Shown here: positions 7,518-31,192 of the stretch, in pieces
How positions within the stretch are numbered: position 1 is the first letter of the stretch
Layout of the letters: each line of letters starts with the position of its first letter
DNA from: an uncultured Bacilli bacterium
GTDB taxonomy: Bacteria; Bacillota_I; Bacilli_A; RF39; UBA660
Direction: 5' to 3'
Assembly (NCBI GenBank): GCA_947632355.1
Contig: CANROY010000002.1
Span: 2,673 to 66,672, forward strand
DNA: 64,000 nt
Translations under genes and position numbers: made by a program
The notes under the pieces: model-generated
Seen by the model: the letters and a program-made list of their open reading frames with translations, nothing else
What the model was told of the DNA's origin: nothing
The model's database searches: none

Positions 7518-8540
7518 GTGGACGAAAGACAAAAGGAACTGTTAAAAGCCATTGTAGAGTCGTACATTAAAACCGTAAAACCGATTGGTTCGAAATCTTT
7601 ATGCAAAAAGTTTAATTGTTCAAGTGCAACCATTCGTAATGAGATGGCTGTCTTAGAAAATTTAGGGTATATTGAAAAGAACCATATTTCATCAGGAAGA
7701 ATTCCTAGTGAAGTGGGCTATAAGTATTATGTAGAACATTTAATGAAACCAAAAGAATTAACAGGTGAAGATGTTTTAAAACTCCAAACGATATTTAAAA
7801 ATAATGAGTTAGAACTAAGTGATACGATTAATAAAACCGTGGAAATTATTAGTGAACTTACTCATTACACAAGTATTGTTTTAGGAAAAAGTAGTGATGA
7901 GAATACATTAAAACAAGTAAGTATAATTCCTATAAGTGATCATAAAATTGTCGCTGTTGTTTGTACCGATAAAGGAATTGTAGAAAATAAACAATTTTTA
8001 CTTGATAATGAAGCCGAAATTAATGAAATTGTGAAAACTTGTGATATTATCAATAAAATGTTAGTAGGAACACCTATTAATGATGTAGCACGAAGATTAG
8101 AATTTGAAATCAAACCGATTATAAGTCGACAAATTAAGCAGTATGAAGCTGTGTATACTATATTTGCAGATGCTTTTAATGATTTTCTAAATAAACGTGG
8201 CAATGTACATTTTGGTGGTAAAACTATGATATTTGATGAACCAGAATACAACGATGCCAATGAAATTAAGCGTTTGGCAAGTAAGTTTGAAGATCAAGAT
8301 TTCATTCGAAAAATTGAAGAAGAAGATAATAATGGGGATATTAAAATCTATATTGGTGAAGAAACTGAATTTGATCCAAATGTTACCATTATTAAAAGTA
8401 CTTATAAATTAAATGGGGAAGAAGGAACTATTGCCATTGTTGGACCAAAACGAATGGAATATGATCGTGTCGTTGGGCTTTTAAGTTATTTACAGAAAGC
8501 CTTAAATGATTTAGAAAATGAGGGGGATCGTTATGAATAA
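7518..8540 (+). CDS. hrcA: heat-inducible transcription repressor HrcA
   Basis: GTG start with RBS AAGAAGGTGA; N-terminal winged-HTH; sits upstream of grpE-dnaK behind the CIRCE operators. Confidence 0.9.
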   Translation: MDERQKELLKAIVESYIKTVKPIGSKSLCKKFNCSSATIRNEMAVLENLGYIEKNHISSGRIPSEVGYKYYVEHLMKPKELTGEDVLKLQTIFKNNELELSDTINKTVEIISELTHYTSIVLGKSSDENTLKQVSIIPISDHKIVAVVCTDKGIVENKQFLLDNEAEINEIVKTCDIINKMLVGTPINDVARRLEFEIKPIISRQIKQYEAVYTIFADAFNDFLNKRGNVHFGGKTMIFDEPEYNDANEIKRLASKFEDQDFIRKIEEEDNNGDIKIYIGEETEFDPNVTIIKSTYKLNGEEGTIAIVGPKRMEYDRVVGLLSYLQKALNDLENEGDRYE

Positions 8541-17832: not shown

Positions 17833-18747
17833 ATGGATTCTGATTTAAAAATGATTAAGAAAAAGTATGGAGAAGAAATGGCTCACTTTTGTCGTGAGGA
17901 ATTTCCAACCATTTTAGAACAAGAGGGTGTTTTAGCTAATTTGTTATTAAAATGGTTTGAACCTTCTAAATTTTTATATAAAGATTTGCAACAAGAGGAT
18001 TTGGAAATGGCTTTTAAAGATTTTATTTACAAGCAATTTGATCAAAAACGAGAAGAAAAAACCAATTCGAATATAAAAACACCACAAGAATTACTAAGCG
18101 AAGCTGGTTATGACTTATATGAATGTAAAAGTGAAGAGGATATTCAAAGTTTTAAAAAATACTATGCTCCAAGGGAAGAACTTTGTACATTTAGAAAAAA
18201 CGAAAATCGTTTAAAAAAATGTCATGTTTTCTTTGCGGTAAAGAAAAATGTAGATACAATTAAACGAGAAGATTTTAAAAAACCACAAAGACAGGACTTA
18301 TATGGAACAAGTGTTATTAGTATTCAATTCGATCGTAATCCCTATCATATTTTATCCATTAAGAATCGATATAATCATACAGTTGATTATTGTGATTCTA
18401 CTTTTTCCAATAATTTAGATAATATTATAGAAGGCTTAACTGATAGTTTTGTCAAACATTATGGTTTAGAGCAAAGTTTTGTGAATCAATTTGAAATACC
18501 ATCATACGTACAAGATAGTAAAGGTAAATACTACAAATACAATTATGAAATCAATGCTGACTATTTTTGCCCAAATAATATTATTTTAAAACAACATGAA
18601 CCAATACGATTACCAAAAGAACGTTATATTTTAGCAGATTATTTTGTTATTGATATGAAGGAAAATACAATATCTAATTATGGATATGATAATGATAGTT
18701 TTCTAGAAATGTTTCAAGACAATCCTATCAAAAGAATTAATGTATAG
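17833..18747 (+). CDS. hypothetical protein
   Basis: 304-aa ORF, no recognised motif. Confidence 0.5.
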   Translation: MDSDLKMIKKKYGEEMAHFCREEFPTILEQEGVLANLLLKWFEPSKFLYKDLQQEDLEMAFKDFIYKQFDQKREEKTNSNIKTPQELLSEAGYDLYECKSEEDIQSFKKYYAPREELCTFRKNENRLKKCHVFFAVKKNVDTIKREDFKKPQRQDLYGTSVISIQFDRNPYHILSIKNRYNHTVDYCDSTFSNNLDNIIEGLTDSFVKHYGLEQSFVNQFEIPSYVQDSKGKYYKYNYEINADYFCPNNIILKQHEPIRLPKERYILADYFVIDMKENTISNYGYDNDSFLEMFQDNPIKRINV

Positions 18748-18783
18748 GCTAAAACGAATAGTAAAATAGTTAAATTAGAAACC

Positions 18784-19269
18784 ATGAAAGGTTTAGTAAC
18801 TTTAGAAATAGATAATGAAAATAGACTAATTGGTTTGGATAATCCTTATGTAGAAGAAATAGGAGATCATTTTTTAGAAGCTAATTATTCTTTAACTTAT
18901 CTTAATTTACCAAATGTTAAAAAAATAGGAAATAGTTTTTTATTTAGCGATACTAAATTATCAAAATTAAATTTACCAAATGTTAGATCAATAGGCCATT
19001 GTTTTATGTTTTATAATAATGTTTTAATCCATTTAAACTTAGATAATCTAGTGGAAATAGGTTCTTGGTTTTTGGCAAAAAATAATTCAGTAATAAATTT
19101 GAATTTAGAAAGTATAGAAATAATTGGAGACCTTTTTATGCCAAATAATCATAATTTAGTAAAAATTCGTATTCCAAATGATGAACGTGTTTATGAAATG
19201 CTTATTCAACAACACCCTAAATACAAAGGAAAAATAGAAATGGTGGAAAAGGAGGAAAGAACAAGATGA
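18784..19269 (+). CDS. leucine-rich-repeat (BspA-type LRR) protein
   Basis: Repeats of about 23 aa: LNLPNVKKIGNSFLF, LNLPNVRSIGHCFMF, LNLDNLVEIGSWFLA, LNLESIEIIGDLFMP. Confidence 0.6.
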   Translation: MKGLVTLEIDNENRLIGLDNPYVEEIGDHFLEANYSLTYLNLPNVKKIGNSFLFSDTKLSKLNLPNVRSIGHCFMFYNNVLIHLNLDNLVEIGSWFLAKNNSVINLNLESIEIIGDLFMPNNHNLVKIRIPNDERVYEMLIQQHPKYKGKIEMVEKEERTR

Positions 19270-19550
19270 TAAAATGTGTGATAGAAAAGGTAGAAGATTA
19301 CAACTATTCCATTCGTGATATCGAAAATGAAATGCATATTTTAAATATGGACTTTTATGGTCTTAAAAAGAAACCTAGTGTAGGAGATTGTTTATATATA
19401 AAAAAAGAACTTTTAAATGCACAAGTTCCTTTATATTTTGAAGTTATGCCCAGTTTAAATAAAGAAGCCTTCCTTCGATTAAACGAAAAAGAATTTCTTT
19501 TACTTATTATTGAAAATCAAGAATATTATTTAAGAAGAGTTTATGGTTGA
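19266..19550 (+). CDS. hypothetical small protein
   Basis: 94-aa ORF whose start overlaps the LRR gene stop. Confidence 0.4.
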   Translation: MIKCVIEKVEDYNYSIRDIENEMHILNMDFYGLKKKPSVGDCLYIKKELLNAQVPLYFEVMPSLNKEAFLRLNEKEFLLLIIENQEYYLRRVYG

Positions 19551-19879
19551 ATAAAATGAATTGTATCTCCAACATGTAAAGAAAAACTAGTATTTTTAGG
19601 TAATTCTAAAATACTTGTTTTTTTAATGCTATGGTTGATTTTAATGATTTTATTTTTAGAACAATTTCGTTCTATAAAAAGAATTGTATTTTCGCTATTT
19701 AAACCGATTATATCAATTTCTTCTTTCATAAAGAAGGTATGAACACTATTGCATTTTGGAAATAGAATACCAGAATGGATATTCGTTTTACCCATAAATC
19801 CCATCAAACGTTCCGAAAAGTTTGTGGCTATTTTGATATCAAACGAATTTTTTTCTAATTGTAGTTTCAAAAGTATCAC
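19541..19879 (-). CDS. DUF192/COG1430-family protein
   Basis: 112 aa with the RLMGFMG...GILF pattern typical of DUF192; convergent with the upstream + strand genes. Confidence 0.5.
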   Translation of the reverse strand: MILLKLQLEKNSFDIKIATNFSERLMGFMGKTNIHSGILFPKCNSVHTFFMKEEIDIIGLNSENTILFIERNCSKNKIIKINHSIKKTSILELPKNTSFSLHVGDTIHFIQP

Positions 19880-19973
19880 CTAATACATCATATCATAAAA
19901 CTGTCAAATTGGTTCTAAAAGAATAGCAATTTCTTTTTATTTCTTCTATAATAAAACTAGAATAGAGGTCGCT

Positions 19974-21068
19974 ATGAAAAAGAAATTGAAATTAGTTTTA
20001 TGTCTTTTACTATTCGTTCTTTTCGTCTTTTTACTATGGAACTCTTCAAAAATAAAGTTTAAAAAAGAGTTAGAATTATCTTTGAATCGAGAGAGTTATC
20101 AAAAAGATATTGTTTCTAAAGTATTAAATGGGAAACATTTAACAGAAAATGAACGCATTGATACTTCATCTTTAGGTGAAAAAGAAGTAATTGTTTCTTT
20201 TAAAACGTTTTATGGACTTACCAAAAAATATAAGGTAAAAGTAAACGTAGTTGATAAAGAAAGTCCAACAATTAAGTATCAAAATACGATTACAACAACG
20301 AAAGGAAAAGAAATTGATTTAACAAAAGGCGTTGAAGTACACGATAATTCAAATGAAGAAATTTCTGTTGCAGTCGAAGGAGAATATGACATTAATAAAG
20401 TGGGAGAATACACGTTATACTATATAGCAAAAGATTCGAGTGGCAATAGCACAAAAGAGGAATTTACCTTAAAAGTATTAAGTTCTTCTTCTAGTAATGA
20501 AACGTATTTTACAACTTCGAAAGGATTTCAAGGAGTTGTAAAGGATGGTGCAACCTATATTGATGGCACATTAATTGTAAATAAAAGTTATGGATTACCT
20601 TCAACATTCGGTAGTGGTCTTACAAACGAAACAACAACGGCATTTAAAAAATTACAATCTGCTGCTTTACTTGATGGCTTAAATATCTATATTGCAAGTG
20701 GTTGGAGGTCTTATCAAAAACAAGTGACGCTTTATAATAATTATGTAGCAAGAGATGGAAAAGAAGCAGCAGATACGTATTCTGCAAGGCCTGGATATTC
20801 TGAACACCAATCAGGGTTTACTTTTGATGTCAATGAAGTTAGTGATAAATTTATTGGAACACCGGAAGCCAATTGGTTAAGTGATAATTGTTATAAATAT
20901 GGGTTTATTTTAAGATATCCAAATGGAAAACAAGATATTACGGGATTTAAATATGAATCATGGCATTTCCGTTATGTTGGAGAGGAACTAGCAACCAAAC
21001 TTTATAACAACGGGGATTGGTTAACTTTAGAGGAATACTTTGGTATTGATAGTGTTTATAAGGATTAG
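19974..21068 (+). CDS. membrane-anchored D-Ala-D-Ala carboxypeptidase (VanY/M15 family) with N-terminal Ig-like repeats
   Basis: N-terminal TM segment; C-terminal M15 motifs SEHQSGFTFDV and ESWHFRY. Confidence 0.75.
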   Translation: MKKKLKLVLCLLLFVLFVFLLWNSSKIKFKKELELSLNRESYQKDIVSKVLNGKHLTENERIDTSSLGEKEVIVSFKTFYGLTKKYKVKVNVVDKESPTIKYQNTITTTKGKEIDLTKGVEVHDNSNEEISVAVEGEYDINKVGEYTLYYIAKDSSGNSTKEEFTLKVLSSSSSNETYFTTSKGFQGVVKDGATYIDGTLIVNKSYGLPSTFGSGLTNETTTAFKKLQSAALLDGLNIYIASGWRSYQKQVTLYNNYVARDGKEAADTYSARPGYSEHQSGFTFDVNEVSDKFIGTPEANWLSDNCYKYGFILRYPNGKQDITGFKYESWHFRYVGEELATKLYNNGDWLTLEEYFGIDSVYKD

Positions 21069-21178
21069 TGCTAGACTAATTCTTTTTATATTTTTATTGA
21101 AAATTAAATGAAAATCAGTATAATAGGATATACTGATTTACTTTGTAAAACTTAAAAAAACTAATGGGAAGTGTAAAG

Positions 21179-21898
21179 ATGAATAAAAAAGATAAGAATA
21201 TTGAATTAAAGATTTATGAATTACTAGGAATTAAAACGTTTAGAAAAGCAGCTTTTAAATTTTTTTATGTTCTATTTATACCATTTTCTTTGGATATGAC
21301 AAAAGAAGAACGCTATCGTTTAATTTATAAAACTCCTAATAATTATATTATGAAAAAGGGAAATGGTCTTCAAGATTTACAAGATTTTAAAAAGTGCTTA
21401 TTGTTTAATGTTGGAATCCATTCATTGGCTTTGTTCGTTTGTATACCATATTTTTTAGAAATTATTAAAGGTACTGTATCATTAATGGCAACAATTATTA
21501 GTCTTTTTTTGGCTATGATAAATATATATTGTATTATGTTACAAAGATACAATTATATTAGAATTAATAATGTTATTAAAAAATTTTTACCACGTGAAGA
21601 AGCAAAGAAAGATATATTAAAAGAAGAATTAAAAAAAGAGGATTCTTTGTTAGCTGCTCATACTTATTCGATAGTAAACAAACAAAATAAAGAAAAAAGT
21701 ATTTCCTTTCAAGAGTTTCTTGATACTGCTACTTATCATGAACTTATAAAATATCGCAATTATTTATCGAATCAATTGGCTATGGGACAACAAGATTTTT
21801 CTGAATTAGAAGAAAATAGTTTTCGTGTTCCTTTTTCTAAAAATAAATCTTTAAAATTAGAATTACTACCTAATAGAAATAATGAAAGTGCTAAATGA
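21179..21898 (+). CDS. integral membrane protein, possibly CrtO-like acyltransferase family
   Basis: N-terminal IYELLGIKTFRK motif followed by TM helices, resembling glycosyl-4,4'-diaponeurosporenoate acyltransferase-like proteins (low certainty); alternative start 21164. Confidence 0.4.
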   Translation: MNKKDKNIELKIYELLGIKTFRKAAFKFFYVLFIPFSLDMTKEERYRLIYKTPNNYIMKKGNGLQDLQDFKKCLLFNVGIHSLALFVCIPYFLEIIKGTVSLMATIISLFLAMINIYCIMLQRYNYIRINNVIKKFLPREEAKKDILKEELKKEDSLLAAHTYSIVNKQNKEKSISFQEFLDTATYHELIKYRNYLSNQLAMGQQDFSELEENSFRVPFSKNKSLKLELLPNRNNESAK

Positions 21899-22018
21899 TT
21901 AGCAATAACAAAAAAATTAAAAAAATATGCTATAATACGTATAGGTGATTCTCCATGGATATCGTTAAAAAGAATTATTAAATTTTGAAATAGAAGAAAA
22001 ATGAAAGAAGGTTTTTGT

Positions 22019-22294
22019 ATGATTGATCTTCATACGCATACTTTATATTCTGATGGAAGTTCTAGTGTAGAAGAACTTTTAACGAAAGCCGAAAAACTAC
22101 ATTTAAGTTTACTTTCCATAACGGATCATGATACGATACAAGCACATTTTGAATTACAAAATCCTATAATAAGAAATCTATTTCATGGTGAAATACTATC
22201 TGGAGTTGAATTAGCAACAACTTATAAAGAAGAATATTCAAAATTGTTTATAGATGATACGGATTCAATGAAAAGAGGAAGAGTTTTAAAATAA
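22019..22294 (+). pseudogene. truncated PHP-domain phosphoesterase (N-terminal about 90 aa only)
   Basis: Starts MIDLHTHTLYSDGS...ITDHDT (PHP motifs I-II), but the ORF stops after about 92 aa whereas PHP domains are about 250 aa; no continuation in any frame downstream. Confidence 0.5.
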
Positions 22295-22304
22295 CATAAA
22301 AGAT

Positions 22305-22333
22305 TTGACTTTACCTCTTTTTTCTTATATATT
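22305..22333 (+). promoter_or_regulatory. sigma-A-type promoter of the Tad/Flp locus
   Basis: -35 TTGACT 22305-22310, 17-nt spacer, -10 TATATT 22328-22333. Confidence 0.5.
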
Positions 22334-22355
22334 TATGGTAAGAGTAGGTGGTAAG

Positions 22356-22559
22356 ATGCTACGAAATAAACATGGTCAAACGTTAGTGGAATATGTATTA
22401 ATTGTTGCTTTAATTAGTGTCATTGCTGTTGCTTTAGTAAGTTATTTTGGGGGCTATTTAAAAGATGCAATTACAAAAACTTCTTGTCCGTTAGTGGACC
22501 AAGAGTATGTTGCAGGGTCAAAACCTGGAGAGGGCATATGCCAAGAAAAAGAAACGTAA
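22356..22559 (+). CDS. flp: Flp-family type IVb pilin
   Basis: ATG 22356 with RBS AGGTGG; Flp motif KHGQTLVEYVLIVALISVIAVA (G followed by a hydrophobic stretch with E and Y); atypical C-terminal extension with two Cys. Confidence 0.7.
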   Translation: MLRNKHGQTLVEYVLIVALISVIAVALVSYFGGYLKDAITKTSCPLVDQEYVAGSKPGEGICQEKET

Positions 22560-22619
22560 ATACTTTGCACTTACGTTTTTTTATGATATAATAATTTTTG
22601 ATAATAGAGGGGTAGTGAT

Positions 22620-22973
22620 GTGATGCTAAAAAAACGCGATGGGCAGGCTTTAGTTGAGTTTGTCATCCTTTTACCCATCTTTATTTTTATGATATTTGCC
22701 ATCATTGATTTTGGAAAAATATGGTCGGTTTCCAACAACTTAGAAAGTCGTATGGATGATGTGGTTACACTGTATAAAGAAAATAGTTCTTTAGAGATAA
22801 TCGAAAACGATTTAAATCTAAAAACAGATTCTATTACGCTAGAAATTCAAGAAGAAGAAAAAACAACCAATATTTTTTTAAAAAAGGAAGTAGATATTAT
22901 AACACCGGGATTAAATTTAATCCTAAAAAATCCTTATGAAGCGAAAGTAAAAAGAGTGATTTATAATGAATAA
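22620..22973 (+). CDS. tadE: TadE-like pseudopilin or pilus assembly protein
   Basis: N-terminal RDGQALVEFVILLPIFIFMIF (TadE-like motif). Confidence 0.65.
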   Translation: MMLKKRDGQALVEFVILLPIFIFMIFAIIDFGKIWSVSNNLESRMDDVVTLYKENSSLEIIENDLNLKTDSITLEIQEEEKTTNIFLKKEVDIITPGLNLILKNPYEAKVKRVIYNE

Positions 22974-23337
22974 CAAAGGTCAAACATTAATTCTATTTGT
23001 ACTTTTATTACCCCTGTTACTTCTATTAATGGCTTTCGTTATTGATACGGGAATGATTCTAAAAGAAAAAACAAAACTCGATAGTACATTAAGAACGGTT
23101 TTAAAAACAACGTATAAGGATAAAGAAGAAGAAAATTATGAAGAACGTTTAACAAAGTTACTAGAAGAAAATGAAATACCTTGTACCAATATGGAATTGG
23201 AACGGAAAGAAAATAAAATACGTTTACAAATTACGTATGAAAAAGAAAGTATTTTTGGAAAAATCATTGGTCTAAACACGTATAAAATAAAAAGTACAAT
23301 GAGTATCAATCAAGATGAAAGAATAGTAAAAGAATAG
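22966..23337 (+). CDS. TadE/TadF-like pseudopilin
   Basis: N-terminal KGQTLILFVLLLPLLLLLMAFVIDTG; start overlaps the previous stop. Confidence 0.55.
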   Translation: MNNKGQTLILFVLLLPLLLLLMAFVIDTGMILKEKTKLDSTLRTVLKTTYKDKEEENYEERLTKLLEENEIPCTNMELERKENKIRLQITYEKESIFGKIIGLNTYKIKSTMSINQDERIVKE

Positions 23338-23348
23338 AGGGATTTGTT

Positions 23349-24152
23349 ATGTCAAAGACAAAAGGAAAATCAATATGCATCTTTTCTTCTAAAGGTGGAG
23401 TTGGAAAAACCATTACCACCATTAATTTAGCAGGTATATTTGAACATTTAGAAAAGAAAGTCTTACTAATTGATTTAGATTTATCTAGTGGTGGTATTAG
23501 TATGGCTTTAAATCGTCCTTTTGAAAAAACAATCTTTAATTTTGTTGATGATGTCAATAACAATCGTTATGAAGAATTTAAAAATTATACAACCAAGTAT
23601 GATGATTTTATTGATATTTTACCTTGTCCTAAAGACCCTCGCCAATGTAATAAGATTGATTCTAAATATATTGATATTTTAATTGATAAAGCCGAATCCA
23701 ACTACGATGTCGTTTTAATTGATACGCATCATGTTTTAAGTGAAATCAATATTGTAACGCTTGATAAAGTAGATACGATTCTATTTGTTTTATCAAATGA
23801 TCCACTCGATTTAAAAAATATGAAATCCTTAATGAGTATTTTTAAAGATTCTGATATTACAAACTATAAGATACTTCTTAATAATAGTCGTGATCCTTAT
23901 AAAGATTATTTTTCTATCTTTGATATTAAAAGCATTATAAAAGCCAATATTGATTATACACTATCTTCTAATTTTTATATTAAAAATATGGATGATTATG
24001 TGATGAATGGTGAAATTATTACGTTACAAAATAAAATGGCTTCTACGTTTAATAAAGACTATGAAACGTTTATGACGATTGCCCTAGATTTATTAGAAAA
24101 AGATAAAGATAAAGTACAAAAGGAAGAGGGGGAAACAAATGAGCAAGACTAG
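23349..24152 (+). CDS. tadZ: TadZ/CpaE-like ParA/MinD-family ATPase (pilus assembly)
   Basis: Deviant Walker A SSKGGVGKTITTINLA; LLIDLDL; 267 aa. Confidence 0.75.
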   Translation: MSKTKGKSICIFSSKGGVGKTITTINLAGIFEHLEKKVLLIDLDLSSGGISMALNRPFEKTIFNFVDDVNNNRYEEFKNYTTKYDDFIDILPCPKDPRQCNKIDSKYIDILIDKAESNYDVVLIDTHHVLSEINIVTLDKVDTILFVLSNDPLDLKNMKSLMSIFKDSDITNYKILLNNSRDPYKDYFSIFDIKSIIKANIDYTLSSNFYIKNMDDYVMNGEIITLQNKMASTFNKDYETFMTIALDLLEKDKDKVQKEEGETNEQD

Positions 24153-25470
24153 TTTAATTGATGCTTTTAACATTGAAAGAAAAGCCCCAAAAATGGGAAG
24201 TATTTCGGATTATGAAATATTTCCAGATAAAAAGTTACTTGATGATTTAAGAACAACCATTGTTGAAAATTTAATCGATAAAGAAATTCCAGAAGATAAA
24301 GTATTAAATGAATTTATCAATGAAGAAATTGAAAATGCCATTGAAGGACATGACTTAACGAACTTAGAAAGAAGTCATTTGTTCAACTTAATTGATAATG
24401 AAATTAATGGCTATGGGCCTTTAACAGAAGTATTAGAAGATAAAAATATTACCGAGATTATGGTGAATAGTCCAAACGAAATCTATATTGAAATCGATGG
24501 ACGTCTAATAAAGGATGAAAGTATCTCATTCATTAATGATGAACACATTGTAAGAACGATTGAACGTTTAATCGAACCTCTTGGAAGAACGATTGATGCT
24601 GCAAATCCAATGGTGGATTCAAGATTACTAGATGGATCTCGTATTAATGCGGTGATACCTCCTTTATCGACAAAAGGACCTGTGATTACGATTCGTAAGT
24701 TTAAAGAAACGATGCAAAGTATAGAAGATTTAATTCGTATTGGTTCGTTAACACCGTATATGGCTCGTTTTTTAGAAGCCTCTGTTAAAAGTAAACTAAA
24801 CATTATTGTTTGCGGAGGTACTGGTAGTGGTAAAACAACCCTTTTGAATATTTTAAGTGGTTTTATTCGTCCAGAAGAACGTATTATTACGATTGAGGAT
24901 GCAGCAGAATTAAGGCTTCATCAAAAACACGTTATTTCTCTAGAAACAAGAGTTACAAATTACGATAAAGACGGAGAAATTACCATACGAGATTTAGTTA
25001 GAAATTCTCTTCGTATGCGACCTGACCGCATTATTGTAGGTGAAGTTCGTGGGAAAGAAGCCTTCGATATGCTACAAGCCATGAATACTGGACATGATGG
25101 GTCTTTAACTACGTTACATGCAAATGGCCCTATTGATGCTTTAAATCGTTTGGAAACCATGGTTTTAATGAGTGGTTTAGATATCCCTATTAAAGCTATT
25201 CGTGAATATATCACAAGTGCTATTGATATTGTTGTCAATATCGATCGAATGAATGACGGAAAAAGAAAAATAACATCCATTTGTGAAATTGAAGGTTTTG
25301 AAGAAGACCGTATTAAACTAAAAGAAATCTTTAGTTTTAAACAAATTGGACTTACCGAAAGTGGAGAAGTCGATGGAGAATTTATTCTTCATAACTTTAT
25401 ACCAAAAGTCTATAAGAAAATGACTTCTCGTGGTATTTACGATTTAGAGGATATTTTTAGTAAAAAATAA
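24139..25470 (+). CDS. tadA: TadA/CpaF secretion ATPase (T2SS/T4P E-type)
   Basis: Walker A GGTGSGKTT; Asp and His boxes (RIITIEDAAEL, TGHDGSLTTLHAN); 443 aa. Confidence 0.9.
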   Translation: MSKTSLIDAFNIERKAPKMGSISDYEIFPDKKLLDDLRTTIVENLIDKEIPEDKVLNEFINEEIENAIEGHDLTNLERSHLFNLIDNEINGYGPLTEVLEDKNITEIMVNSPNEIYIEIDGRLIKDESISFINDEHIVRTIERLIEPLGRTIDAANPMVDSRLLDGSRINAVIPPLSTKGPVITIRKFKETMQSIEDLIRIGSLTPYMARFLEASVKSKLNIIVCGGTGSGKTTLLNILSGFIRPEERIITIEDAAELRLHQKHVISLETRVTNYDKDGEITIRDLVRNSLRMRPDRIIVGEVRGKEAFDMLQAMNTGHDGSLTTLHANGPIDALNRLETMVLMSGLDIPIKAIREYITSAIDIVVNIDRMNDGKRKITSICEIEGFEEDRIKLKEIFSFKQIGLTESGEVDGEFILHNFIPKVYKKMTSRGIYDLEDIFSKK

Positions 25471-25490
25471 AAAAGAAAGGAAAGAAGTTT

Positions 25491-26498
25491 ATGAAAAGTA
25501 TGACCCTACCAATTCTATTACTTTTAGTAGCTGCACTAGTTGGTGCCATCCTTTTGGTTGTGCTTATTTATAATGCCTTACAAAACGCTCGTTTAGAAAA
25601 ACGTTTTGAAGATTTTAGTATGCATGCAAGTAATGATGAATTTCTTTCCTTTTTAGATACTATTATAGATGGAATTTCTATTTTTATTACGAAATTTAGT
25701 CATATTTTGATGAAATTTGGTTTTTTAAGGAAATATGCCAATCACTATTTAAAGTACATTAGTTATGAAGAAAAAGAAGATAAAGAACCAATGGAATATA
25801 TAGCAGTGAAGTTGTTTGTTGGTGCTATTTTTCTATTCTTAAGTTTAATAACGTCTTTTCTAAAAACAAAAACGCTTTCTCCCGTTTCTAGTCTTCTTAG
25901 TTTTCTAATTGGATTTTTCCTATACGATTTTGTGTTATGGATGCAATTTCAAAAGAAAAGAAGAAATATTGAAAATGATTTAGTAAAAGCGATTATGATT
26001 ATGAATAATAGTTTTAAATCCGGTAAGAATATTATGCAAGCCATTGTGACGGTCAAAAATGAACTAGATGGACCTATTTCTTTAGAATTTAAAAAAATCT
26101 ATATGGATATGACCTATGGGCTTAGTTTGGATGTTGTTTTTAATCGTTTTTATGAACGAGTAAAACTAGAAGATGCCAAATACATTGCTTCTTCCTTAAC
26201 TTTACTAGATAAAACAGGGGGAAATATTATTAAAGTGTTTGAAACAATCGAAAAATCTTTTTATAGCAAGAAAAGAATGCGTGATGAGTTAAAAAGTATG
26301 ACAGCAGCCAGTGTGTTTGTCTATCGTGTTTTAGTTGTGTTACCACTTCTATTTACAACGTTTATTTTTATCGTAAATCCCAACTATTTTGCACCGTTTT
26401 TTAACTCTTTTATCGGTTTAGTAGTCTTTAGTTTTATACTCATTCTATATTTTTGCTATATTGGCATTATTAGGAAGATATTAGAGGTGAAGATGTAA
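25491..26498 (+). CDS. tadB: TadB-like inner-membrane platform protein (T2SS-F domain)
   Basis: 335 aa, multi-TM with a central cytoplasmic T2SSF-like domain. Confidence 0.7.
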   Translation: MKSMTLPILLLLVAALVGAILLVVLIYNALQNARLEKRFEDFSMHASNDEFLSFLDTIIDGISIFITKFSHILMKFGFLRKYANHYLKYISYEEKEDKEPMEYIAVKLFVGAIFLFLSLITSFLKTKTLSPVSSLLSFLIGFFLYDFVLWMQFQKKRRNIENDLVKAIMIMNNSFKSGKNIMQAIVTVKNELDGPISLEFKKIYMDMTYGLSLDVVFNRFYERVKLEDAKYIASSLTLLDKTGGNIIKVFETIEKSFYSKKRMRDELKSMTAASVFVYRVLVVLPLLFTTFIFIVNPNYFAPFFNSFIGLVVFSFILILYFCYIGIIRKILEVKM

Positions 26499-27199
26499 TG
26501 AAAAAACATACAATTGCCCATCATATCTATCCTAAAAAAACGATAGAAAGAATTAACCAAAAAATAACGTATTTAGGACCATTTAATACGCTTGATACGT
26601 ATACGTTCCTACATTTTCGCTTGATTGTTTCTGTACTTATCTTTGTTCTTTTCTTAATCTTTAGTAAACACGGAGCCATTCTAGCACCAATCCTTGTTGT
26701 CGTTTTCTACTATGGAAGTGAAAAAATACTACTTGATGAACGCATTTTAAAACGTACAAAAAAACTAGAAGAAGAAGCCATATTCTTTTTTGAAATCTTA
26801 AGTCTTACTTTAGAAACAAATCCTTATTTAAAAGGAGCACTTGAATTGACAACAAAAAATATTGATAGTGAGTTATCGATAGAATTTCAAAAAACACTTT
26901 CTGATGTTTCGTTAGGAAAAAGTTTTTCGGAAAGTTTAGTTTTAATGAAAGAACGTATTCCAAGTGATGCCATTAATACGATTCTCTTAAACTTAACAGA
27001 ATCTAGTATTTTTGGAAACAATATCGTTGAGAGTTTAAAGAATCAACTTGAGTATTTACGTGATAAAAAACTTCTAGAAATTAAGGGAGAAATCGCCAAG
27101 TTACCGATGAAAATGAGTATTTTATCTGTACTATTCTTTATTCCAATTATGCTCCTGATCATTCTAGCACCTGTTTTACTTGATTTTTTCCTAAAATAA
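26498..27199 (+). CDS. tadC: TadC-like inner-membrane platform protein (T2SS-F domain)
   Basis: 233 aa, TM helices flanking a T2SSF-like helical domain; ATG overlaps the tadB stop. Confidence 0.65.
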   Translation: MKKHTIAHHIYPKKTIERINQKITYLGPFNTLDTYTFLHFRLIVSVLIFVLFLIFSKHGAILAPILVVVFYYGSEKILLDERILKRTKKLEEEAIFFFEILSLTLETNPYLKGALELTTKNIDSELSIEFQKTLSDVSLGKSFSESLVLMKERIPSDAINTILLNLTESSIFGNNIVESLKNQLEYLRDKKLLEIKGEIAKLPMKMSILSVLFFIPIMLLIILAPVLLDFFLK

Positions 27200-27219
27200 C
27201 ACTTGAATTAAAGCAAATT

Positions 27220-27242
27220 TACTAGTTTTACTAGTATTTTTT
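27220..27242 (+). terminator. intrinsic terminator after tadC
   Basis: Perfect 7-bp hairpin TACTAGT-TTT-ACTAGTA followed by TTTTTT. Confidence 0.6.
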
Positions 27243-27247
27243 CTTGT

Positions 27248-27277
27248 TTGACATTTATGTTAAGGGAGGGGTATAAT
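27248..27277 (+). promoter_or_regulatory. sigma-A-type promoter of the lipoprotein gene
   Basis: -35 TTGACA 27248-27253, 18-nt spacer, -10 TATAAT 27272-27277. Confidence 0.5.
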
Positions 27278-27302
27278 TGGGTTAGAAAAGAGGAAAAGAA
27301 GA

Positions 27303-28322
27303 ATGAAAAAGAAAATGCATCATTTATTATTAATGGGAATAATGGTATTGGGTTTAACTGGTTGTGGAAAAATAGAATTAAAAAATGATTGGGCCAAAAA
27401 ATATGAAGAATTTTTAAAAGCTGAAATTATTGACCAAGATATAGAAAAGGGCTTACATTCCTTTTTATACAAATATGAAAGCTATGCTATTTCTTTTATT
27501 CAATTAGATGATTTTAAGAACCCTGTTCTTATCATAAAAAACGAAAATAGATTAGAAAGTACGGAAAACGATTCTTGTGTCTATAATATGGCTTACTATT
27601 ATATAGATAACGATAATAAAGTAAATTCCCAAGCAACTTGTAGTGACAAAACCGAATTAAAACTATTGTATGATATAGAAGACAATACGTATAAATATGC
27701 CTTATATTATATAGATGAGGATTCAGAAGAACCTGTTTCTTTACTCTTTATAAGTGATAATAAAGAAAGTGAAGAAGATGTTGATTTAGAGAAATATAAT
27801 AATGAAGAATATAGTGAAAAATTTATAGAAATGGATTTACAATTAGAAGAACAATCTTTTAATAATAAAATAACAGAAAAAGAGTTATTAAAAACAGTAC
27901 AAAATTTAACAGAAACGAAACCAATGAATACCGTAACAGAAGAAAGTAAAACGGAAATTCAAAACAAGTTGGATGAAAAGAAAAAGGCTGAAGAAGAACA
28001 AAAACAAAAAGAGGAAGAAGAAAAACGAAATAAAGGAATTCAAGCTGGAAAGTATACATTAAAATATGGTCGATATAAAAATAGTTTTGTTGATATTACT
28101 TTAAATACAGATAATACTTGTAGTTTTAAAGATACTGATTATAAGATAGATACGACAAATTGTACGTTTGAAATAAAAAAATATTCTGGTATGGAATTTG
28201 GAGAATATGTCTCAGGTTATCATATTATTTTCCATCTAAAAGGACAAAGTGATAAGTATTTTTCCGTTGTTAAAAATAATAGTTTTGCTGATACGAGATC
28301 GGATGTAACGTATCAAGGATAG
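27303..28322 (+). CDS. lipoprotein with an acidic/K-rich coiled-coil linker, adjacent to the Tad locus
   Basis: Signal peptide plus lipobox MGIMVLGLTGCGK; 339 aa. Confidence 0.65.
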   Translation: MKKKMHHLLLMGIMVLGLTGCGKIELKNDWAKKYEEFLKAEIIDQDIEKGLHSFLYKYESYAISFIQLDDFKNPVLIIKNENRLESTENDSCVYNMAYYYIDNDNKVNSQATCSDKTELKLLYDIEDNTYKYALYYIDEDSEEPVSLLFISDNKESEEDVDLEKYNNEEYSEKFIEMDLQLEEQSFNNKITEKELLKTVQNLTETKPMNTVTEESKTEIQNKLDEKKKAEEEQKQKEEEEKRNKGIQAGKYTLKYGRYKNSFVDITLNTDNTCSFKDTDYKIDTTNCTFEIKKYSGMEFGEYVSGYHIIFHLKGQSDKYFSVVKNNSFADTRSDVTYQG

Positions 28323-28338
28323 TAAAAGTATCGTGGTA

Positions 28339-28373
28339 AGGATTGATTTTACATCAGTCCTTTTTGTTTTTTT
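28339..28373 (+). terminator. intrinsic terminator
   Basis: AGGATTGAT-loop-ATCAGTCCT hairpin followed by a long T-run. Confidence 0.55.
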
Positions 28374-28385
28374 CAACGATTTTAC

Positions 28386-28414
28386 TTGCATTTTTTAGTA
28401 ATTATGCCTATAAT
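28386..28414 (+). promoter_or_regulatory. sigma-A-type promoter of the sigma factor gene
   Basis: -35 TTGCAT 28386-28391, 17-nt spacer, -10 TATAAT 28409-28414; RBS GAGGGGA. Confidence 0.55.
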
Positions 28415-28437
28415 AAATCCTCGAGCGAGGGGATACT

Positions 28438-30570
28438 ATGTTAAGTGAGGAACAACTAAAATATAAAAATAAATATAAATTTGCAAATATACCTGATGCT
28501 TTATTTGTAACCCTTTTTAATAAAGCCAAAGAATCCGAAAATTTTCAAACAACATTACAACAATATATCTATAATTACTTACATGAAAATATGAATCTTG
28601 AGGTTATGCAAAATTATATTGATCATATGAATATCAATCCAAAATTAAACAGTCAAACCTTAATAGAAAAGATAAGTTCTTTTTTTGCGTTTTTAAGAAA
28701 ATTAGATTATACATTAACCGATGCAGAAGTACAAGGTTTATTAGAACTAGATATCTTTCAAAAAATTTTAGATAGCTTTGTTAAAAATACAAAAAATATA
28801 ACAGAAAAAAATCTAGAAAATATTCATCATAATGATCAAAATTTTAAGCGTATTTGTGATCTTTACGCGGAAGAAAATTCCTTATTTGAACCAAATGAAG
28901 AAGCCCTAAAAGAAATTGAAGAAGAGGAAGAAGACTTAAATAACGAATTTGAACAAATGGAAAAGGAATATGAGAATAGTAGTAGTTTAGATCCAGTTCA
29001 TTTATATATAAAAGATATTATCCAATATCCAGTCCTTACAGCGGAAGAAGAAATAGAGCTTAGTAAGCGTATAGAAGCCGGAGATGAAACGGCCAAAAAT
29101 ATTTTAGCAAAATCCAACTTACGTTTAGTGGTAAATGTTGCAAAACGTTATGTAGGAAGAGGCTTTTCATTCTTAGATTTAATTCAAGAAGGAAATCTTG
29201 GCCTTATGAAAGCCGTCGATAAATTTGATTATAAGATGGGATTTAAATTTAGTAGTTATGCTCCTTGGTGGATTCGTCAAACCATTACGCGTGCTTTAGC
29301 AAATCAAACAAGAACAATATATATTCCCGTTTATCTAGTGGAAAGAAGAAACAAAATTAATAGAGCATATAAAAAAATATGGACAGAATCTGGAAAAGAA
29401 CCAACAATAAAAGAATTGGCAGAGTATTTAAATATGTCTGAAAAGGAAGTACAATATTGTTTAGAGAATAGTCAAGATTTGATTTCATTAGAAACACCGA
29501 TTGGTGAAGATGAAGATTTTGTACTTTCCGATTATATTGCAGATGATAAATTTATAACTCCCGAAGAAAATGCTCAAAATAAGGATTTAAGAGCTATTTT
29601 TGAAAATATATTTTCAACTTTACCTGAAAGAGAAGTTTTAATTTTAAAATTACGTTTTGGGTGGGATGATGGAGAGACAAAAACATTAGAAGAAGTTAGT
29701 AAAAATTTCAATGTTACTCGTGAAAGAATACGCCAACTTGAAGCAAAAGTCTTACGTAAAATAGGGCAACCTAACTATAGATATTTATTTGAAGATTATT
29801 ATCATGAAACAAGTAAAGAAAATGATTTAATGGTTCAACAAATGATGAAACCAACAAGTACTTTTAATTCTTCGCTTGCAGCAAATACAATAAAAAATCG
29901 TTTATTTGAAGTTCAAAGAAGATACCCAAATATTTCTTTTGGTAAATGGATTGATTTAATAGAAAAACTTTCCTATCGCCAAAAAAGTGCACTTTATTTA
30001 TGCTATGGGTACCAATTAAATGAATATAATTTTAAAACCGTTGCTAAAAGTACGCCCAATTTTTATCAAATGCATAAAAGTGCATTAACAAATTTGATTC
30101 GTTTAGCAAATAATTATCAAAATTCTTTAAATAAAAATCAAGTAGTATTAAAGAAACAAGAATACCTTGTTCTTAAATTATATTATAGTACGGATAAAAA
30201 TCAAGATGTAGTGATAAAAAAACTTGCCCAAAAACTAAATATTTCGGAAAATGAAGTAGAAATAATAAGAAAAAGTGCTTTAAAGAAATTAAATAAAGAT
30301 TTATCCATTTGGTTTCAATGGGACTCTGACGTTCAAAGCTTATTAACAATTATGAATAAAGTAAAATTAAATTTAATACAAGCAAAACTTTATAAAGTTT
30401 TGCATTCTAAATATCAAGATAGTATTTCGGATGCTGCTTTAGTAAATTTAATTCAAGAAATAGTCGTTGATCCATCAATAACACTAGAAAAGTATTTAGA
30501 AACAGTTGAAAATCAAATCAGACAAACAAACCTAAATGTAGAGAAAAAAATACTTTTAAAAAATGAATAA
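28438..30570 (+). CDS. sigA: sigma-70 family (RpoD/SigA-like) RNA polymerase sigma factor with a long N-terminus and an unusual C-terminal extension of about 260 aa
   Basis: Region 1.2 DPVHLYIKDIIQYPVLTAEEEIELSKRIEAGDE; region 2 NLRLVVNVAKRY, LIQEGNLGLMKAVDKFD, YAPWWIRQTITRAL; region 4.2 VTRERIRQLEAKVLRKI; 710 aa in total. Confidence 0.85.
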   Translation: MLSEEQLKYKNKYKFANIPDALFVTLFNKAKESENFQTTLQQYIYNYLHENMNLEVMQNYIDHMNINPKLNSQTLIEKISSFFAFLRKLDYTLTDAEVQGLLELDIFQKILDSFVKNTKNITEKNLENIHHNDQNFKRICDLYAEENSLFEPNEEALKEIEEEEEDLNNEFEQMEKEYENSSSLDPVHLYIKDIIQYPVLTAEEEIELSKRIEAGDETAKNILAKSNLRLVVNVAKRYVGRGFSFLDLIQEGNLGLMKAVDKFDYKMGFKFSSYAPWWIRQTITRALANQTRTIYIPVYLVERRNKINRAYKKIWTESGKEPTIKELAEYLNMSEKEVQYCLENSQDLISLETPIGEDEDFVLSDYIADDKFITPEENAQNKDLRAIFENIFSTLPEREVLILKLRFGWDDGETKTLEEVSKNFNVTRERIRQLEAKVLRKIGQPNYRYLFEDYYHETSKENDLMVQQMMKPTSTFNSSLAANTIKNRLFEVQRRYPNISFGKWIDLIEKLSYRQKSALYLCYGYQLNEYNFKTVAKSTPNFYQMHKSALTNLIRLANNYQNSLNKNQVVLKKQEYLVLKLYYSTDKNQDVVIKKLAQKLNISENEVEIIRKSALKKLNKDLSIWFQWDSDVQSLLTIMNKVKLNLIQAKLYKVLHSKYQDSISDAALVNLIQEIVVDPSITLEKYLETVENQIRQTNLNVEKKILLKNE

Positions 30571-30597
30571 GGCTTACATTTTTGTAGGCTTTTTTTC
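30571..30597 (+). terminator. intrinsic terminator
   Basis: GGCTTACA-TTTT-TGTAGGCT hairpin (with G-U pairs) followed by TTTTTTT. Confidence 0.55.
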
Positions 30598-30643
30598 TTG
30601 TTTGTAGTACGCTTGTATGCTAAAATATTTTTAGGTGGTTAGA

Positions 30644-31192
30644 ATGTTTAGTTTTATAAAAGGAACAATTGCTGAAACAGAAAAAAACTATATTACAATT
30701 GAAAATAATGGAATAGGCTATCAAATTTTTGTTGCCAATCCTTTTAGTTATCAAATAGGAGAAGAAAAACAAGTATTTTTGTATACGTATATTAAAGAAG
30801 ATGAATTTTCTTTATATGGCTTTAATTCAATGGAAGAAAAAGAATTGTTTTTAAGACTGATTAGTGTAAAAGGAGTTGGCCCTAAACTAGCTTTACCTAT
30901 GTTCGCACTAGGTAGTGTCAAGGGTATTATTGATGCGATTGATCGTGAAAACATTTTATATTTAACCAAATTTCCTAAAGTAGGAGAAAAAGTAGCAAGA
31001 CAAATTATACTAGATTTAAAAGGAAAACTTGTGAAGGATGAAAGTACCTCTTCTGTTGGTTTTGAAGAAGTGGTAGAAGCCTTAGAAAGCCTAGGCTATA
31101 AAAGTGCAGATATTAAACGAGTTCTTCCGAAGATAACGAGTGAAAAAGTAGAAGACCAAATTAAAGAAGCTTTACAGTTATTATTAAAATAG
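30644..31192 (+). CDS. ruvA: Holliday junction DNA helicase RuvA
   Basis: N-terminal MFSFIKG (typical M..IKG), HhH motifs (KGVGPKLAL), C-terminal RuvB-binding domain; start after RBS GGTGG. Confidence 0.9.
   Translation: MFSFIKGTIAETEKNYITIENNGIGYQIFVANPFSYQIGEEKQVFLYTYIKEDEFSLYGFNSMEEKELFLRLISVKGVGPKLALPMFALGSVKGIIDAIDRENILYLTKFPKVGEKVARQIILDLKGKLVKDESTSSVGFEEVVEALESLGYKSADIKRVLPKITSEKVEDQIKEALQLLLK

Follow-up and report, generated by a model that had tools for sequence, protein, structure and literature searches.

A Tad/Flp pilus operon of the monoderm type, probably vertically inherited, beside a truncated PHP-domain gene in an uncultured RF39 gut bacterium

We analysed 64,000 nucleotides of DNA from an uncultured Bacilli bacterium of the order RF39 (assembly GCA_947632355.1, contig CANROY010000002.1, positions 2,673 to 66,672 of the forward strand; hereafter the window, whose own numbering is used for its features), and focused on a Tad/Flp pilus operon and on the truncated PHP-domain gene that precedes it. 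Seven consecutive open reading frames (ORFs) on the forward strand make up the operon. The first encodes the Flp major pilin (flp, 22356-22559; Flp_Fap, 34.1 bits, cutoff 32.2), and is followed by genes for two minor pilins, tadE1 (22623-22973; TadE PF07811, 39.5 bits; N-terminus MLKKRDG/QALVEF, the slash marking the predicted cleavage site) and the TadF/G-like tadE2 (22966-23337; Tad PF13400, 27.9 bits; TadE, 25.4 bits; TadF, 22.8 bits; N-terminus MNNKG/QTLILF). At the tadZ position lies the gene of a 267-aa ParA/MinD-family ATPase with a KGGVGKT P-loop (23349-24152; AAA_31, 62.9 bits, with further matches to CbiA and ParA). The remaining genes encode the secretion ATPase TadA/CpaF (24139-25470; T2SSE, 211.9 bits) and the platform proteins TadB (25491-26498, 335 aa; one T2SSF domain, 36.8 bits; five predicted transmembrane (TM) segments) and TadC (26498-27199; one T2SSF domain, 47.0 bits). 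All seven assignments exceeded the Pfam gathering score, and the hidden Markov model scans bore out the gene order that an earlier reading made from the letters alone (the sequence-only reading) had proposed, namely flp, two TadE/F-like pilins, TadZ, TadA, TadB and TadC.

Residues 67-414 of TadA matched the solved CpaF structures (PDB 8RKD/9E24, E=3e-102), while the score against the NCBIfam model TIGR03819 (323 bits) was under the cutoff of 373. The Pfam scores of TadE1 and TadE2 were all over their cutoffs, which identifies both as minor pilins of a Tad system; the tadE2 product is without the Glu at position +5, and tadE1 was kept in every relative whose locus covers that region. The ParA-like protein was named TadZ because of its conserved operon position. 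Judged by these domain matches, the parts list reads as a predicted minimal monoderm Tad machine, consisting of a pilin, two minor pilins, a ParA-like organiser, a CpaF motor and a TadB/TadC platform. In many relatives, TadB is a protein of about 500 aa in which an immunoglobulin (Ig)-like N-terminal extracellular domain and a TM segment precede the T2SSF domain (for example L015, 11326-12846); this Ig-like domain scored 25.6 bits against PF16403, just under the cutoff of 27. The 335-aa TadB of the window is without it, and a similar domain is fused to VanY upstream of flp in the window and in the related locus L001.

The TadA protein retrieved 62 related loci at 56-88% identity, all from metagenome-assembled genomes of uncultured gut bacteria classed as Bacilli, Tenericutes, Mollicutes or Erysipelotrichaceae. 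These relatives include Clostridium sp. CAG:710, Firmicutes bacterium CAG:822 and Candidatus Coprosoma, the last of which corresponds to the GTDB genus CAG-822 in the order RF39 (PMC8035907). This order is uncultured, and its highly reduced genomes show numerous auxotrophies (PMC12306168). The window is a stretch of core chromosome with valS, hrcA-grpE-dnaK-dnaJ, trmB, obg, ruvAB, queA and tgt. The order tadE1-tadE2-tadZ-tadA-tadB-tadC was kept across the 62 relatives, and in the window's subclade the flanks were kept as well, running from obg through a DUF192 gene on the opposite strand and flp to tadC to ruvA-ruvB. The identities of TadA and RuvB to their counterparts varied together (TadA/RuvB: L001, 88/89%; L003, 86/90%; L007, 77/74%; L008, 76/78%; L011, 76/77%). 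All seven Tad ORFs were intact in the window and in four further assemblies.

Two arrangements of the pilin gene exist in the lineage, one with flp linked to the tad operon and one with flp unlinked. Over half of the tad operons in RF39-like relatives begin at tadE1, without any flp in the surrounding 10 kb. Many of these genomes have a flp gene of the family that stands alone among housekeeping genes, flanked by ATP-synthase-like genes and a PRPP-synthetase-like gene, names that were taken from the L112 translations and not from Pfam (loci for both observations: L018, 8503; L112, 5998-6183; L098-L166). In L052 (4616-8190), an insertion of about 3.4 kb separates flp from tadE1, and the DUF192 gene is still beside flp.

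Upstream of flp lies a fragment of a PHP-domain gene (21970-22232, forward strand), consisting of the leader and about the first 75 codons. The window from 21970 to 22234 was 80-90% identical to the PHP genes on two short metagenome contigs, L081 and L082. The PHP profile matched at positions 1-75 of 164 only, and the NCBIfam model of RNase RNM at positions 2-72 of 275 (48.5 bits against a cutoff of 375). Two homologues, P0002 (88%) and P0003 (74%), run on as '...TTYKGETIEVLGYGF...' where the window ORF diverges after '...ELATTYK'. The gene had been described as cut off after about 92 aa; the truncation was confirmed, with the PHP part ending near codon 75 within a chimeric ORF of 97 aa (22001-22294, forward strand), in which the alignment switches from PHP residues 1-75 to 22 foreign codons joined in frame. 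A full-length family member of about 97 aa is ruled out, since the homologues continue past residue 75.

The foreign part of the ORF could be traced. From about 22224 on, the window was 84% identical to the flp-upstream DNA of L003, and a four-way alignment placed the switch from PHP to L003-like sequence at about 22226-22236, across the microhomology ATAAAGAAGAA. In L003, an intact 59-aa ORF with its own ribosome-binding site (RBS) lies between DUF192 and flp (7972-8151), and its last 22 codons differ from window 22232-22294 by six synonymous and four conservative changes; no further homologue of this ORF was found among 160 loci compared. The window junction recurred in four independent assemblies and is therefore not an assembly artefact. 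In the sister strain represented by L082, the 3' end of the VanY gene is joined directly to PHP codon ~11, and more of the 3' part of the PHP gene is kept, with a frameshift; the same gene is thus decaying there by a different deletion, in which the 5' end was lost and the 3' end retained. No PHP sequence was found in the DUF192-flp gap of L001 or L003. Because the gap of these two relatives holds no PHP gene, the deletion in L082 differs and the junction could be mapped, the alignments indicate that the PHP gene is a decaying passenger which a local deletion has cut, and that the Tad operon is the resident.

The sequence-only reading had instead proposed that the Tad locus was inserted horizontally and disrupted the PHP gene. 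Such an island would suit the position of the PHP ORF, which stops about 60 bp short of the flp promoter, and mobility of Tad loci is common in other lineages such as Bulleidia (PMC12786226). However, comparison of the junction in related genomes gave no sign of insertion: dozens of relatives that lack a PHP gene at this place have the operon in synteny, with obg/DUF192 on one side and ruvAB on the other, and TadA divergence follows that of RuvB. The composition was also native, with a GC content of 29.7% for the Tad locus against 29.5% for the window, a native GC at third codon positions, and a dinucleotide-signature distance at the 64th percentile among same-sized window segments. A search for direct or inverted repeats flanking the locus returned AT-rich noise only. 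A tblastn search across the window found no 3' half of PHP downstream of tadC or elsewhere, and a split gene or an insertion was rejected on this result. Moreover, the DNA to the right of the break is native flp-upstream sequence common to L003. With synteny, the co-variation of TadA and RuvB, native GC and dinucleotides and the lack of flanking repeats all against it, and with the PHP gene decaying by another deletion in L082, the island was rejected as an extremely improbable explanation. We conclude that positions 22305-27242 very probably hold an intact, vertically inherited monoderm Tad (type IVc) operon, and that the PHP fragment beside it is a passenger pseudogene cut by deletion.

To define the pilin, its start codon has to be set. 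Public gene calls give a protein of 74 aa from ATG 22335, which lies directly 3' of a -10 box ending at 22333 and is probably upstream of the transcript start; as starts, TTG 22305 and ATG 22335 both fall in or upstream of the -10 box region. The most likely true start is ATG 22356, which is preceded by the RBS AGGTGG and gives a 67-aa prepilin with the 7-aa leader MLRNKHG/QTLVEY. The motif HG/QTLVEY fits the cleavage pattern G/XXXXEY, and G7, E12 and Y13 were invariant in 40 homologues. The full set of invariant residues comprised G7, Q8, E12, Y13, C44, Y51, G54, G58 and C62.

The atypical C-terminal extension with two cysteines that had been noted for this pilin is present, and both cysteines were invariant across the family. 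A search of 1.84 billion representative sequences with the Flp profile yielded 771 matches at E<=1e-3, and the family comprised 448 clusters at 90% identity, every one of gut or metagenome origin. The C-x17-18-C tail was kept in members down to about E=1e-8; weaker matches were ordinary Flp pilins that have no cysteines and end just past the helix. The AlphaFold2 (AF2) model of the pilin, with a predicted local distance difference test (pLDDT) score of 84.6, showed a helix at residues 8-47 followed by a hairpin of two strands (49-52 and 61-64; pLDDT 80-89), with C44 at the end of the helix and C62 in the second strand. A fold search with this model gave no significant PDB match. The two-cysteine tail is a real, subfamily-defining feature that is predicted to form a beta-hairpin, and a Cys44-Cys62 disulfide would probably staple this hairpin to the helix end. 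Five distant two-cysteine members (P0307, P0308, P0317, P0327 and P0338) kept the hairpin tail, and in them the G/XXXXEY cleavage motif is gone, which raises the question whether such pilins get processed.

The flp promoter TTGACT-17-TATATT (22305-22333, forward strand), which had been proposed from the letters, was recovered by the scan with 10 of 12 consensus matches, and its -35 TTGAC and -10 box were conserved across 25 aligned related loci. Promoter-like matches were not enriched in the AT-rich window (64 found against 54.8 +/- 8.3 expected); the conservation in 25 loci is better evidence for a promoter than the agreement with the consensus. The flp stop codon is overlapped by a hairpin with a U-run (22548-22582, forward strand; -8.9 kcal/mol, z = -2.8), which was also found by the terminator scan. 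From its fold and position, it is likely to act behind the pilin gene as a partial terminator or attenuator. The terminator reported after tadC was borne out in part: a 7-bp AT-rich hairpin, TACTAGT-TTT-ACTAGTA, followed by six T does exist there (27220-27242, forward strand), but it was read from the sequence, is weak (z = -1.5) and was not called by the terminator scan. It possibly marks the end of the operon. An Rfam search of 18000-31000 returned nothing over noise.

In the mechanism that we propose, a sigma-70-type promoter would drive flp, and the hairpin after this gene would probably let pilin mRNA outnumber machinery mRNA. The 67-aa prepilin would be cleaved after Gly7 (G/QTLVEY) by an A24 prepilin peptidase whose gene would lie elsewhere in the genome. 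The TadB/TadC membrane platform and a hexameric CpaF/TadA ATPase are predicted to polymerise the pilin into a thin filament that passes through the cell wall, with TadE1 and TadE2 as minor pilins priming the filament and the ParA/MinD-type TadZ positioning the machine. No secretin or outer-membrane parts would be required. The C-terminal beta-hairpin would form the exposed surface of the filament. Upstream, a microhomology-mediated deletion in the DUF192-flp gap would have joined PHP codon ~75 to the end of a small native ORF.

Several observations weigh against an intact, working operon of this kind. We screened hydrophobic ORFs for the catalytic GxGD motif of prepilin peptidases and found none in the 64-kb window, none within +/-10 kb of the 62 RF39-like loci (0.98 Mb in total) and none in 80 metagenome flp loci. 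The same screen recovered TadV in distant Tad loci of Thermoactinomycetaceae (L069 and L072) and of Gram-negative bacteria (L074, L075, L079 and L080). The window ORFs with several TM segments were a DUF3792 protein, a DUF421 protein and one 12-TM ORF. In the loci examined of the RF39-like lineage, the peptidase is never linked to the Tad locus, so that the predicted processing of the pilin would depend on an enzyme located outside the window and the related loci. TadZ has no N-terminal receiver-like domain, its best PDB match was MinD (4e-13), and it reached 27 bits against the NCBIfam model CpaE_hom_Actino, for which the cutoff is 154. The putative disulfide would have to form in the extracellular pilin of a strict anaerobe, and the adhesive role discussed below is predicted from family membership.

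The locus might accordingly be seen as a non-functional relic, a reading that could draw on the missing linked A24 peptidase, the TadZ without its receiver-like domain and the PHP pseudogene next door. The seven ORFs, however, are intact in the window and the four other assemblies, conservation across the 62 relatives is strong, and both the functional residues of the pilin and the flp promoter are held constant, which makes a relic very improbable. Monoderm Tad loci normally have their tadV unlinked, as in Bifidobacterium breve. A secretin (RcpA/CpaC), RcpC/CpaB and TadD had no match among the scanned proteins; the locus contains no further ORFs and therefore no secretin gene. Their absence is expected in a monoderm and fits the Gram-positive subtype. 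The earlier statements that neither a prepilin peptidase nor a secretin is encoded at the locus, and that the locus is a complete one of the Gram-positive (monoderm) type, thus agree with the motif screen and the gene set.

By analogy with other members of the family, the most likely function of the predicted pilus would be adhesion to host mucus, epithelium or partner microbes. Instead of an adhesin, the operon could encode a DNA-uptake (competence) pilus used for nucleotide scavenging in an auxotrophic, reduced genome. Flp/Tad pili are linked to transformation in Micrococcus luteus. The highly reduced RF39 genomes with their many auxotrophies (PMC12306168) would make such a supply useful, Tad pili are tied to DNA uptake in Liberibacter (PMC8513845), and the operon adjoins ruvAB, which is a weak pointer. 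Against this, the adjacency to ruvAB is ordinary synteny, the pilin bears no sign of DNA binding and has an acidic to neutral tail, and no comEA, comEC or dprA was found among that part of the window ORFs which was scanned. Weighing both sides, we consider a DNA-uptake role unlikely.

On the reverse strand at 19541-19879 lies a DUF192 gene (PF02643, 38.2 bits, cutoff 27) for a protein of 112 aa with no signal peptide. Its AF2 model (pLDDT 90) matched PDB 3PJY/3M7A with template-modelling scores of 0.71-0.75 (E about 1e-6), and its invariant residues were Cys, Asn, His, Asp and Glu. Of the 26 genome loci that carry flp, 21 have a DUF192 gene divergently upstream of it; none of the 36 loci without flp has one. 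A DUF192 gene was also present in a Dehalococcoidia Tad locus (L064, 9917-10390). In Bulleidia extructa and Helcococcus ovis, the tad operon itself includes a DUF192 gene (PMC12786226). Scanning metagenomes with the Flp profile weakened the link, since the majority of this family's flp genes stand alone, with no tad genes or DUF192 nearby: tadE was missing from 46 of 69 metagenome flp loci, and DUF192 was present in 14 of 63. Where obg was matched on a metagenome contig, it lay just upstream of DUF192; DUF192 was not found beside stand-alone flp genes. The idea of DUF192 as an obligate partner of flp was downgraded to a lead, since most flp genes in the metagenome loci are without it. The link remains a suggestive one that does not hold generally; the cytoplasmic DUF192 protein may serve monoderm Tad pili in an accessory or regulatory role that has gone unrecognised.

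What varies in the region is the DUF192-flp gap, which measures about 100-350 bp in most relatives and holds cargo in others: a VanY gene in L001, genes for a 474-aa protein and a family-2 glycosyltransferase in L008, and genes for 751-aa and 331-aa proteins in L011. In the window, the gap holds, besides the PHP fragment, two genes, one for VanY and one for a membrane protein of 244 aa. The first (19974-21068, forward strand) encodes a membrane-anchored, 364-aa Ig-like and VanY D-Ala-D-Ala carboxypeptidase (VanY, 131 bits; Bact_surface_Ig-like, 30.9 bits); among genome loci, only L001 also has it at this site, and its 3' end is also present on the sister-strain metagenome contig L082. The second (21164-21898, forward strand; GC 23.8%) contains a CrtO-like acyltransferase domain (34.2 bits), and was not found in any relative's locus nor in L082.

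Downstream of tadC lies a lipoprotein gene (27303-28322, forward strand; 339 aa, lipobox LTGC), which the sequence-only reading had described as separately promoted. This was confirmed by a scanned promoter with 12 of 12 consensus matches (27248-27277, forward strand) and a good terminator found by both scan and fold (28338-28362, forward strand). Pfam, NCBIfam and PDB gave no match for the lipoprotein, none of the related loci held a homologue, and these searches mark it as a predicted strain-specific orphan of the window's own species, outside the Tad system. Further downstream, at 28438-30570, is the gene of a 710-aa sigma-70 factor. It comprises regions 1.2, 2, 3 and 4, an N-terminal stretch of about 185 residues and, at the C-terminus, an extension of about 260 aa that has weak extra matches to region 4 and to a GerE-like helix-turn-helix. 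A sigma factor gene between tadC and ruvA was found only in the window, L001 and L003 (39-43% identity).

We compared the operon with known Tad systems. The locus of B. breve UCC2003 (O'Connell Motherway et al. 2011, PNAS; cited in PMC12786226 as ref. 29) likewise belongs to a monoderm gut commensal; it reportedly contains flp, tadE, tadF, tadZ, tadA, tadB and tadC, as here. It is also said to have no secretin or outer-membrane parts and a prepilin peptidase encoded away from the locus. Its machinery genes reportedly precede flp-tadE-tadF, whereas flp comes first in the window. The window operon further differs in its 267-aa MinD-like TadZ, its 7-aa leader and its two-cysteine hairpin pilin, and its host is a low-GC RF39-like member of the Bacilli, whereas B. 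breve is an actinobacterium.

[quoted passage not shown] It comprises 13 genes, with tadV first, two pilA genes, TadG and a coiled-coil protein, whereas the window operon has seven genes and no linked tadV; DUF192 lies among the tad genes in Bulleidia but is divergent and upstream in the window. The authors of that study judged the Bulleidia operon to be horizontally acquired (PMC12786226), in contrast to the probable vertical inheritance of the window operon. The Cpa/Tad system of Caulobacter crescentus (CpaF structures 8RKD, 8RJF and 9E24) has a motor ATPase that is a clear orthologue of the window TadA at the E-value given above, and it shares with the window TadB and TadC proteins of a single T2SSF domain each and a Flp-type pilin with G/XXXXEY. 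Unlike the window system, it belongs to a diderm and includes the CpaC secretin, CpaB/RcpC, CpaD and a linked CpaA peptidase. Tad pilins, as characterised in Caulobacter, are described as being without a globular beta-sheet domain (PMC11067988). TANB77 (PMC11680825) is likewise a group of uncultured, reduced-genome gut Firmicutes with a conserved Tad-type machine, and RF39 abundance correlates with TANB77 abundance (PMC11680825). Unlike the window system, TANB77 has CpaB, two ParA-like proteins, a fused TadC-TadB and pilin-like proteins of 143-237 aa, and it has no short Flp pilin of the window type. No description of Tad or type IV pili in RF39 was found in the literature searched.

These comparisons place the system plainly within the known Gram-positive Tad type, as a new member whose pilin is a modest variant. 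A further-reaching proposal, which we regard as possible but doubtful, is that the pilin represents an undescribed Tad subfamily confined to RF39-like gut Bacilli, in which a disulfide-stapled hairpin would form the surface and epitope of the filament and DUF192 might be an accessory or regulator of monoderm Tad pili. If this were true, the hairpin (C-x17-18-C, with Y51, G54 and G58 invariant) would be a binding or immunogenic epitope of abundant uncultured gut bacteria. The main result is a corrective one, in that an apparent gene-disrupting island is very probably a native operon beside a decaying passenger gene. The hairpin-capped Flp is a small and highly conserved predicted surface protein that could serve enrichment, imaging and immunological study. 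The prevalent, uncultured RF39-like Bacilli of the gut have very small genomes with numerous auxotrophies, and the retention of an intact Tad operon at a fixed chromosomal position throughout the lineage suggests that attaching to surfaces, whether of the host or of partner microbes, may be central to their lifestyle.

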